The notes below the pieces were generated by a model. That model was not told where the DNA came from. It saw only the letters and a program-made list of their open reading frames with translations, and ran no database searches. Of a DNA stretch of 5,051 nucleotides, positions 1,973-3,520 are shown in pieces (the stretch's first letter is position 1; each line of letters starts with the position of its first letter). A program made the position numbers and the translations under genes. This DNA is from a virus (Duplodnaviria; Heunggongvirae; Uroviricota; Caudoviricetes). The DNA is taken from the IMG/VR virus record IMGVR_UViG_2645727562_000017; one strand, given 5' to 3'.

Positions 1973-2252
1973 GCGTCCTGTCTCCCCGGTCTTTCTGCTG
2001 GGCGAGAAAATCGCGGCACAGGCCTTTGGCTTTCAGCTCATTCAGCACAAAATCAATATCTTCATTCAGGTAGCTGAAAATATGCGGAATGTAGAGCTGA
2101 TGCAGGCCGGAGAGTTCACGGTGAATCAAATCACCCCCAACAAACTGGGATACGGCGCTGGCGCGGTTGAGCTTATGGTAAGCCTCAATGCTGAGGTGTT
2201 CACGGGCGTCATGACGCGCTGAGACGGTCTGAGGGGCTTTTTTATTACGCAC
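1965..2252 (-). CDS. epsilon: Epsilon-like protein (P4 derepression factor candidate), 95 aa from a GTG start
   Basis: Track ORF 1965..2408 (147 aa) has an implausible Cys/Pro/Val-rich N-terminus overlapping kil out of frame. An in-frame GTG at 2252 is preceded by GGAGGTG (rc of 2258-2264) and gives 95 aa ([30 protein letters not shown]...). Position (after kil, before orf151) and size fit P4 epsilon as I recall it; identity not verified. Confidence 0.55.
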
Positions 2253-2442
2253 GGGACACCTCCACCACCGGCAGACGGGCAGCAAGGGAGAGCACATAGT
2301 CACGGACAAGGGAACGGCGGGCGCTGCGTTCATCACCGGCGACGGTGCGAAGCATACAGATACGGGGATGACGGTCTGCGCGACGGACAGCCGCAAACAC
2401 AAAGACAAATTCAGGGTGTGAAGGGGTAAGGGTTGTAGCCAT
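2245..2442 (-). CDS. kil: Kil-like small protein, 65 aa; first translated gene downstream of the PLE-like promoter
   Basis: ORF track 2245..2442 (-), 65 aa. GGAGG Shine-Dalgarno 8 nt upstream of the ATG, embedded in the seqC-like repeat. Size and position match the recalled P4 kil. Confidence 0.6.
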
Positions 2443-2453
2443 GAAGGCAGCCT

Positions 2454-2496
2454 CCGTTAGAGTAGCAAATAACTGCTATCGCCGGAGTTCCCACGC
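2454..2496 (-). promoter_or_regulatory. Downstream copy of a bipartite direct repeat (candidate seqC-type target for the immunity RNA), overlapping the kil RBS
   Basis: Plus-strand CCGTTAGAGT (2454-2463) and GTTCCCACGC (2487-2496) recur at 2724-2733 and 2741-2750. On the leftward transcript these read GCGUGGGAAC ... ACUCUAACGG. Confidence 0.45.
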
Positions 2497-2693
2497 TCGA
2501 TGGCGATAGCCCAGACGGGGGTAAGAATACCGGCCTCGAACGAATACCGGCCAGCCCGGAGGCTGCCCCGCCTGAGCTACCATTGACTCAGCGGCATAAC
2601 AAGCGAACGCGAACAGGATGCACGGAATGCCACCTGCACGACAAACCACACACCACACCATAATCTGGCGCTCTGTGGCGTTGATTGCGACAC
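2497..2693 (-). ncRNA. cI: Approximate location of the P4-type immunity RNA (cI-like) within the untranslated PLE leader; exact ends not determined
   Basis: About 250 nt between promoter and kil with no convincing protein gene. The leftward transcript has several GC-rich hairpins (CUGAG-N10-CUCAG; CAGCC-UCCG-GGCUG; paired GGCCGG elements), consistent with a processed structured RNA. The track's 90-aa ORF 2476..2748 lies here and is unlikely to be a real gene. I could not locate the complementary seqB segment by eye. Confidence 0.3.
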
Positions 2694-2715
2694 AAAAAAA
2701 GACGCATGGCGCGTC
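2694..2715 (-). terminator. Candidate intrinsic terminator/attenuator in the PLE leader
   Basis: Leftward transcript reads GACGCG-CCA-UGCGUC followed by UUUUUUU (plus-strand A7 at 2694-2700; stem from plus 2701-2715). Short 5-6 bp stem, so probably weak. Confidence 0.35.
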
Positions 2716-2723
2716 ATATGTCG

Positions 2724-2750
2724 CCGTTAGAGTTACACGGGTTCCCACGC
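2724..2750 (-). promoter_or_regulatory. Upstream copy of the bipartite direct repeat (candidate seqA-type target) in the 5' leader of the PLE transcript
   Basis: CCGTTAGAGT (2724-2733) + 7 nt + GTTCCCACGC (2741-2750). Same two boxes as at 2454-2496 but with a 7-nt rather than 23-nt spacer. Confidence 0.45.
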
Positions 2751-2753
2751 CCG

Positions 2754-2809
2754 GCTGCCGATTTTGCGGCAGCGGAAAAACTATATCCGCAAATGCCGGA
2801 AAAAGGCAA
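2754..2809 (-). promoter_or_regulatory. Sigma70-type promoter for the leftward immunity/early transcript (PLE-like), with a perfect inverted repeat at the predicted start
   Basis: Minus strand: -35 TTGCCT (2809-2804), 18-nt spacer, -10 TATAGT (2785-2780). Immediately downstream is GCTGCCG-ATTTTG-CGGCAGC (2754-2773), a 7-bp perfect inverted repeat. Lies about 40-65 nt downstream of the vis stop. Confidence 0.5.
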
Positions 2810-2844
2810 GCCAGAAAAAGGGACTTTTTGCAGAGCAGGCATCA

Positions 2845-3111
2845 TCATGCGTCGTACCCCCGTTTGCGTCCGGCAATGCGCCCGGCCATCCATGCGGTGA
2901 CTTCAGAGTGCAGCCAGGCCACATTTTTACCGCCAAGACTCACCTGCGGCGGAAATTCCCCCTTACGGATGAGTTCATAGATGGTCGAGCGTGACAGGCC
3001 GCACAGGTGCATCACTTCCGGCAGACGTAAAAAACGCTCCTGCGTGATGTCCGGCAGCGGCATCAGTGGCGTCACAGGGGCGGGAGACGGGGAAGAAAAA
3101 ACAGCTTGCAT
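2845..3111 (-). CDS. vis: AlpA/Vis-family small DNA-binding regulator (P4 Vis-like; late-promoter regulator / excision factor), 88 aa
   Basis: ORF track 2845..3111 (-), 88 aa. GAGGT Shine-Dalgarno 7 nt upstream. Contains the AlpA-type helix-turn-helix signature LSRSTIYELIRKGEFPPQVSLGGKNVAWLHSEV. First gene downstream of the leftward late promoter. Confidence 0.8.
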   Translation of the reverse strand: MQAVFSSPSPAPVTPLMPLPDITQERFLRLPEVMHLCGLSRSTIYELIRKGEFPPQVSLGGKNVAWLHSEVTAWMAGRIAGRKRGYDA

Positions 3112-3164
3112 CGGGCTACCTCGTTAATGTCCATACAGCACCGGATAAGTCCGTCCGGCTTCGG

Positions 3165-3231
3165 GTAGCGCTTTATTTTGTGAATATTTTCAGCAGACGC
3201 AACAGGGGGAATTTGTTCCGGCAACCTTACA
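3165..3231 (-). promoter_or_regulatory. Leftward late promoter (PLL-like) with Ogr/Delta-type activator dyad
   Basis: TGT-N12-ACA at 3214-3231 (TGTtccggcaaccttACA). No -35. A CACAAA element about 40 nt away on the minus strand (3182-3177) parallels the CACAAT of the rightward promoter. Predicted start near 3167, about 55 nt upstream of vis. Confidence 0.6.
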
Positions 3232-3346
3232 ATGCCTGTGTATTTTTTATCCATCCCCACTGAAAGGCACTCAAAGCCACCTAAAGCAACTCGAAATTTT
3301 TATAGTGAAATACAAATCGTTTTTTCTTATTCATTCCCAGCGAATT

Positions 3347-3520
3347 AATAAAAACAAACAGTAATAAACAGCACAAAAAGCCCATCAACGGGTGAACAGT
3401 GGTGAACAGACGGTGAACAGTCATTACTGCGATTGTTCACCCTTTAACTTACTGTATTACTTATCTTTTTTCTTATGGTGAACAGAGGTGAACAGTAAAA
3501 TATAAAAAAACAAACAGTAA
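3347..3520. repeat. Iteron cluster in an AT-rich region (P4 crr-like cis replication element; predicted binding sites for the alpha C-terminal domain)
   Basis: Octamer GGTGAACA (rc TGTTCACC) at 3391-3398, 3401-3408, 3412-3419, 3477-3484, 3487-3494 (10-11 bp phasing) plus one inverted copy TGTTCACC at 3434-3441. Flanked by a 15-bp direct repeat AAAAACAAACAGTAA at 3350-3364 and 3506-3520. Many AACAG pentamers; adjacent AT-rich tract 3250-3370. Confidence 0.72.

Follow-up and report, generated by a model that had tools for sequence, protein, structure and literature searches.

What does the interrupted eta frame of this P4-like prophage represent: a gene lost in nature, a gene expressed by recoding, or a flaw in the sequence as deposited? 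The window, i.e., the whole 5,051-bp stretch of DNA that was analysed, is a complete draft contig (JHRZ01000106.1, assembly GCA_001265735.1) and is the core of a P4-like satellite prophage. Its minus strand carries the start of alpha, ORF106, orf151, epsilon, kil and vis, while sid, delta and then psu at the contig end lie on the plus strand, and positions 2200-3150 share 95.7% DNA identity with phage P4. One terminus falls inside alpha and the other inside psu; this is how a repeat left unplaced by the assembler is expected to look. The elements of the vis-kil region are as follows.

2845..3111, minus strand: vis (orf88), an AlpA-family regulator of 88 aa that aligns to P4 ORF88 and whose exact protein is common in E. 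coli
2847-2845, minus strand: the vis stop codon TGA, followed by a second in-frame TGA at 2844-2842
2840..2848, minus strand: ATGATGATG, three eta start codons that overlap the vis stop (ATGA), the starts used by RefSeq in L094 and L095
2780..2809, minus strand: a PLE-like sigma-70 promoter within eta (TTGCCT, 18 nt, TATAGT)
2695..2773, minus strand: leader RNA of the PLE transcript (Rfam isrK, 74.5 bits)
2714..2716, minus strand: the TGA that closes the 44-codon ATGATGATG ORF, in frame only through the extra seqA base
2499..2587, minus strand: CI immunity RNA (Rfam C4 antisense RNA, 69.7 bits)
2474..2478, minus strand: the TAG (2478-2476) that closes a 121-codon open stretch, together with the extra A2474 (GATAGCAGTT)
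2245..2442, minus strand: kil, 65 aa, which is the C-terminal part of eta in intact form, carries an Icd-like domain and is 100% identical in many relatives

The first-pass annotation had placed vis, two TGA codons, 121 sense codons, a TAG, 11 codons and kil in one minus-strand frame, and translation of 3111-2245 confirms this arrangement, as it does the one-base offset of the ATGATGATG ORF, its 44 codons and its end at the TGA at 2716-2714; every coordinate and stop given there is correct. The ATGATGATG ORF ends at codon 45 and the kil stop is not reached in frame, the span 2848-2245 being 604 nt, which is not divisible by 3. The sharing of one frame by vis and kil is a 1-in-3 coincidence, and the 121-codon stretch is meaningful only in part: its middle, from seqA to seqB, is the true eta frame, and both of its ends are out-of-frame sequence that is open by chance. 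The first-pass annotation also described P4 eta as a long ORF that starts at a cluster of three start codons and has kil as its C-terminal part, and this proved right. In reference P4 (NC_001609) the ATGATGATG cluster overlapping the vis stop is the start of a 199-codon ORF that runs without a break to the kil stop. The match between a span of 597 nt and 199 codons, which had seemed suggestive, is a coincidence, because the real eta is counted from the first ATG and measures 600 nt.

The P4 eta/kil region is the same locus with the same layout (about 96% identical DNA): ATGATGATG lies over the vis stop, PLE, seqA, the CI RNA and seqC lie inside the ORF, and kil forms its C-terminal part. P4 Eta matches Phage_ASH (PF10554) over aa 22-146 with 82.4 bits and the Icd-like model (NF033153) over aa 146-193 with 73.3 bits, the Icd-like part being Kil. 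In the window, Phage_ASH is matched in one frame only at profile positions 12-70 (30.2 bits, in the middle of the 121-codon stretch), and the Icd-like domain of Kil is intact (76.1 bits). RefSeq annotates in complete E. coli genomes a 600- or 591-nt gene for an 'Icd-like protein' whose start overlaps the vis stop. We compared 79 copies, namely P4, the window and the 77 IMG/VR relatives that had usable anchors, and found eta open in 75 of them, at 199, 196, 195, 192 or 184 aa. Eta is a conserved ORF and the window copy is the exception; P4 and the 75 open copies have a frame of 184-199 aa, whereas that of the window is broken by four extra bases, which we attribute to assembly. The identical arrangement of stops and frames is absent from P4, and the earlier surmise that the reference sequence might differ holds only trivially, the reference being intact. 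A Kil scan of genome contigs recovered only 5 loci, which were divergent and were left out of the comparison. PMC10111431 describes the nested eta and kil genes of P4.

Relative to P4, four single bases are inserted in the window: one in seqA, one in seqB, one after GATAGC (just upstream of seqC) and one in seqC or its spacer. One way to keep Eta in the face of these insertions would be programmed recoding, i.e., a frameshift from the ATGATGATG frame to the kil frame combined with readthrough of the TAG. Both frames are open over 2841-2717, where a single +1 shift would join them, but a P4-like Eta would need four separate +1 events (at seqA, at seqB, at A2474 and at seqC or its spacer), and a single shift with amber readthrough would yield out-of-frame sequence over part of the Ash domain. 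The likeness to programmed +1 frameshifting or readthrough, as in prfB, is superficial and consists in an ORF that is split between frames; unlike prfB-type recoding, the window has no slippery motif between seqA and the TGA, as judged by eye, and no recoding signal is conserved, eta being a plain ORF in the 75 open copies. Recoding, which the first-pass annotation had entertained, was rejected on the number of shifts needed and the lack of conservation; we give it practically no credence, and the four extra bases look instead like the product of merging two P4-like sequences.

P4 immunity is exerted by RNA, the seqB of the CI RNA pairing with seqA and seqC, and is related to the c4-icd-ant system of phages P1 and P7. 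The window shares the Rfam matches of this system as well as the Icd-like domain of Kil. All three models (C4 RF01695, c4-a1b1 RF03163 and isrK RF01394) score above gathering, and the CI RNA has the C4-family fold with its 69.7 bits against a gathering score of 45. The C4 target model matches 2786-2734, and within the leader RNA lie seqA and, at 2715-2701, a terminator-like hairpin with a T run behind it. The promoter at 2809-2780 we take to be PLE from what is known of P4. At least five discrete immunity types occur among the relatives, in which seqA, seqB and seqC covary: CTCGAAGG/CTTCGAG, GTTATCGG/CCGATAAC, TTCACAGG/CCTGTGAA (the type of P4 itself), TCTAACGG/CCGTTAGA and CTTCAAGG/CCTTGAAG. 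In these natural types seqB pairs perfectly over 8 nt. In the window, seqA and seqC (ACTCTAACGG) and seqB (TTCGTTCGAG) are each one base longer than in any natural type; seqA and seqC are 9 nt, and of the 9 positions at which the hybrid seqB faces them 8 pair, one of these as G.U, and an internal one is a U.C mismatch.

Column by column, the immunity and ori regions of the window are a blend of two natural haplotypes, one of the TCTAACGG immunity type with a 600-nt eta and one of the CTCGAAGG type with a 591-nt eta. The segments in which both parental states are found together are these.

2724..2733, minus strand: seqA as written, ACTCTAACGG, the union of both parental forms
2619..2627, minus strand: a 9-nt block present in the parent with the 600-nt eta, missing from the parent with the 591-nt eta and kept in the window
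2535..2544, minus strand: the seqB loop as written, TTCGTTCGAG, the union of both parental forms
2443..2463, minus strand: seqC (ACTCTAACGG, 2463-2454), the kil Shine-Dalgarno sequence GGAGG and the spacer
3190..3380: the ori region, a second column-wise blend of two natural haplotypes

Within seqA, C2732 comes from the CTCGAAGG type and C2726 and T2729 from the TCTAACGG type; within seqB, G2541 derives from the TCTAACGG-type parent and G2535 from the CTCGAAGG-type parent; and in seqC and the spacer, C2462 is of the CTCGAAGG type and C2456 and C2443 are of the TCTAACGG type. The natural CTCGAAGG lineage carries an extra A after GATAGC that is offset by a 1-nt deletion in the spacer between the kil Shine-Dalgarno sequence and ATG; the window has this extra A, yet its spacer is full-length. 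In-silico removal of the bases of the CTCGAAGG parent (C2732, G2535, A2474 and C2462) restores an open eta of 600 nt and 199 aa, and removal of those of the other parent (C2726, G2541, C2456 and C2443) gives 600 nt with a single TAA, which arises from the blended T2459, a position at which the real CTCGAAGG type has G. The four union bases are therefore the sole cause of the interruption.

The blend extends well beyond the immunity determinants and takes in roughly 100 columns. From the leader terminator to the CI RNA, a stretch of 61 nt, the natural sequences fall into two main haplotype groups, of 61 nt and 52 nt, and at each variable column the window has the state of one group or the other, alternating every few bases. 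Over the 604-nt eta region the best single relative mismatches the window at 31 alignment columns, whereas the best pair, L009 (TCTAACGG type, 600-nt eta) and L055 (CTCGAAGG type, 591-nt eta), accounts for all but 4 columns, and for every column when gap opening is made cheaper in seqA, seqB and seqC. Traced by origin, the region resolves into 29 alternating runs, with about 26 switches from parent to parent over about 450 nt. In the ori region 14 mismatches fall to 0 with the best pair. A copying model assigns the window a cost of 18 in the eta region, the strongest outlier against a panel median of 2, and a cost of 40 over 3.2 kb against a median of 12. L009 and L055, as well as L008 and L010 used for ori, are proxies and not the true parents, and the proxies available for the whole contig (H44 and H45) are imperfect, leaving 34 of 132 columns unexplained.

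The choice between the two parental states follows a rule. All 9 indel events that separate the parents are represented in the window by the base being present, 4 from one parent and 5 from the other, and this one-sided retention is the source of the net gain of four bases. Where the parents differ by a substitution, the window favours the larger base in the minus orientation (T>G>C>A), which is to say the alphabetically first base on the plus strand. This base was taken at 36 of 40 columns in eta (p = 2e-7), at 37 of 37 columns in the ori region 3190-3380 when compared with L008 and L010 (p = 1.5e-11) and, with cruder parent proxies, at 62 of 86 columns of the whole contig (p = 5e-5). Two of the 4 eta columns that go against the rule adjoin the 9-nt indel, where the alignment is ambiguous. 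No alphabetical bias was seen in eight control loci, and in a test that requires no parents the window ranked first among 73 sequences (z = 3.9). We know of no biological process that picks alleles alphabetically; a consensus of mixed reads, in which ambiguous columns are resolved in the order A, C, G, T and gaps are resolved to bases, yields the pattern of the window.

These observations bear on the reading that the window is a real element, produced by exchange between co-resident satellites (e.g., through patchy heteroduplex repair), which acquired 9-nt determinants, lost the long eta and kept kil. PLL transcripts of such an element would need translation of kil or of the 44-codon ORF to escape termination. 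The intact state of kil, vis, the CI RNA and all neighbouring genes of the window speaks for such an element, and three other IMG/VR loci also have a broken eta. But the alphabetical choice of bases in eta and ori is non-biological, some 26 switches of origin in 450 nt far exceed what homologous recombination produces, and the 9 indel events all run in the same direction. Moreover, the window seqB has a U.C mismatch with the seqA and seqC of the same element, and the lethal kil would be less tightly controlled as a result. We therefore regard a real element as unlikely. Its stronger form, in which satellite exchange has made a new 9-nt immunity specificity (perfect in L089, described below) and thereby destroyed eta, is more doubtful still; if it were true, Eta and the PLL antitermination that depends on eta translation would be dispensable in a maintained prophage.

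Two related candidates were set aside on the same observations. Genuine pseudogenisation tied to a change of immunity type was considered first, prompted by the position of the extra bases right in seqA, seqB and seqC, and was rejected on account of the column-wise blend and the alphabetical choice of bases; it could hold only if chance had produced both the alphabetical and the indel pattern. An ancestral or intermediate lineage would fit the mixed substitutions but not the alphabetical rule, the one-sided indels or a broken ancestral ORF.

The forms found in the window were sought elsewhere. Its seqB is absent from IMG/VR, from JGI metagenomes and from 5,426 complete E. coli genomes, whereas a seqB type used as positive control was recovered from 249 E. 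coli genomes. Its seqA is absent from IMG/VR (searched as a 23-mer) and from the same 5,426 genomes (searched as a conserved 30-mer core), and its seqC is absent from IMG/VR, the sole collection searched for seqC. Six ORF products of the interrupted region, comprising four eta-strand fragments, one ORF in another frame and one antisense ORF, gave no match in an exact look-up among 15 billion predicted proteins. That the arrangement was not found in any collection searched also speaks against a real element.

An independent assembly, GCA_051218175.1, adds weight to the other side. It contains two P4-like copies, L088 and L089, on one 4.76-Mb contig, both with a broken eta, and these copies encode the same orf151 protein as the window. 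The two copies occupy 711963-718418 and 1802361-1808816 of JBPKIK010000002.1. Both have the 9-nt seqA CTCTAACGG and the same stop at codon 44 as the window, so that two loci outside the window share its seqA length and its premature TGA. L089 is a clean TCTAACGG-type sequence with three single-base insertions, owing to which its seqA, seqB and seqC are perfectly complementary over 9 nt; the 9-nt seqB form of L089 is absent from IMG/VR and from the 5,426 complete E. coli genomes. In L088 the TCTAACGG and CTCGAAGG types are interspersed as a fine mosaic. Against the same reading, L088 and L089 are two copies of different type in one genome, and each is readable as a type-1/type-4 mixture. No alphabetical bias was seen at either locus. 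Since the same two parental types recur and both copies reside in one genome, we suspect that their broken eta may stem from cross-copy polishing, and we leave a small probability to a real '+1' 9-nt immunity type of the kind seen in L089.

Based on these comparisons we propose, with considerable confidence, that the window does not represent one molecule but a consensus into which two (or more) P4-like satellite prophages, most likely co-resident, have been collapsed; the interrupted eta would then most likely be an assembly artefact. The parents would be a TCTAACGG/CCGTTAGA element with a 600-nt eta and a CTCGAAGG/CTTCGAG element with a 591-nt eta, both of which have an intact eta in nature. 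Where the copies differed by substitution, the consensus would have taken the alphabetically first base on the plus strand, as would follow from settling ambiguity codes or ties in the order A<C<G<T, and where they differed by an indel the base would have been retained. Offset single-base indels in seqA, seqB and seqC set the two immunity types apart, as does a pair of indels that compensate each other, an A gained after GATAGC being balanced by a spacer between Shine-Dalgarno sequence and ATG that is one base shorter. The union of the two types would add four net bases, with which ATGATGATG would fall out of the kil frame and the TGA at 2716-2714 and the TAG at 2478-2476 would become in-frame stops. 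The way in which the blend was made, in the assembler or in later processing, and the presence of both copies in one genome we infer from the pattern itself. The earlier statement that eta is interrupted stands for the sequence as given and falls for disruption in a real copy, since the extra bases fit a merged consensus.

A merged consensus could equally have been drawn from a mixed sample, i.e., two strains or a heterogeneous culture with one P4-like prophage each, in which case the interruption would still be an artefact; the sequence evidence cannot separate two copies per genome from two genomes per library. Several P4-like copies per genome are, however, common in E. coli, in which such elements occupy up to 4 places per genome, and GCA_051218175.1 has its two copies, with the orf151 protein of the window, on a single contig. 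We consider a mixed sample very improbable and retain co-resident prophages as the more likely source of the consensus.

In its properties the window resembles collapsed-repeat or chimeric contigs: it is likewise short and corresponds to the shared core of a multi-copy element, and its variable columns fit two real haplotypes with a deterministic choice of base and with indels kept. The underlying biology would be that of an ordinary P4, with vis, nested eta/kil, PLE, seqA, CI RNA and seqC. Forti et al., in J Bacteriol 181:5225 (1999), reportedly dealt with the nested genes eta and kil of phage P4. As biology the interrupted eta is unimportant, the underlying satellites being ordinary P4-like elements with an intact eta. 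It does call for caution, in that short draft contigs that correspond to cores of multi-copy mobile elements can be column-wise blends, and the frameshifts, 'new' immunity specificities and pseudogenes that such blends produce are false. A bias towards the alphabetically first base, together with indel bases that are always kept, offers a quick, sequence-only test for a blend when a contig is set against a panel of relatives. Apart from the window, the survey of copies backs real selection on the eta frame: every difference among the natural length variants is a multiple of 3, and in one lineage a +1 indel is compensated by a -1 indel.

The long eta ORF, which begins at the start cluster overlapping the vis stop and ends with kil, is open in 74 of the 77 relatives with usable anchors (IMG/VR loci L008-L085, in which the eta region lies at about 1090-1698 of each locus), and among its length variants (600, 591, 588, 579 and 555 nt) every difference is a multiple of 3. 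In the CTCGAAGG lineage two changes offset each other: an A is added after GATAGC, and the kil SD-ATG spacer is 1 base shorter. This pattern suggests that the reading frame is under selection, despite the overlap of eta with PLE, seqA, the CI RNA and seqC.

The immunity determinants lie in the window as follows.

2724-2733, seqA, in the leader
2535-2544, seqB, in the CI RNA loop
2454-2463, seqC, before kil

Among the IMG/VR loci the three covary as perfect 8-nt complements, defining at least five discrete immunity types, which account for 22, 20, 13, 13 and 6 of 78 sampled loci. In a few loci (L062, L076, L092 and L093) the type of seqA differs from that of their own seqB and seqC, reflecting either natural module shuffling or additional chimeric assemblies. 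Rfam family RF01394 (isrK, a Salmonella sRNA family) matches the P4 PLE leader over its full length (window 2695-2773, minus strand), taking in seqA and the leader terminator. IsrK-type sRNAs would therefore be the counterparts of the short transcript that P4-like elements make from PLE.

Broken eta frames were found in further loci.

L066, IMG/VR, 589 nt
L073, IMG/VR, 601 nt
L083, IMG/VR, 589 nt
L088, P4-like prophage, JBPKIK010000002.1 1802361-1808816 (GCA_051218175.1)
L089, P4-like prophage, JBPKIK010000002.1 711963-718418 (GCA_051218175.1)

None of the five showed alphabetical bias, i.e., preference for the alphabetically first plus-strand base where parental haplotypes differ. The breaks in L066, in which seqA, seqB and seqC are also mutually mismatched, L073 and L083 are either real frameshifts or assembly errors. 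L088 and L089 share a single 4.76-Mb contig; in the former, TCTAACGG-type and CTCGAAGG-type sequence alternates as a fine mosaic, and the latter is a TCTAACGG-type element in which seqA, seqB and seqC have each gained a single base, producing perfect 9-nt complementarity. This pattern reflects either polishing across the two copies or an immunity type that is real and new.

The P4 ori area upstream of vis (window 3190-3380) is hypervariable in the relatives, with 55 haplotypes among 73 loci over 190 nt, and in the window it is a perfect two-haplotype blend, the second such stretch.
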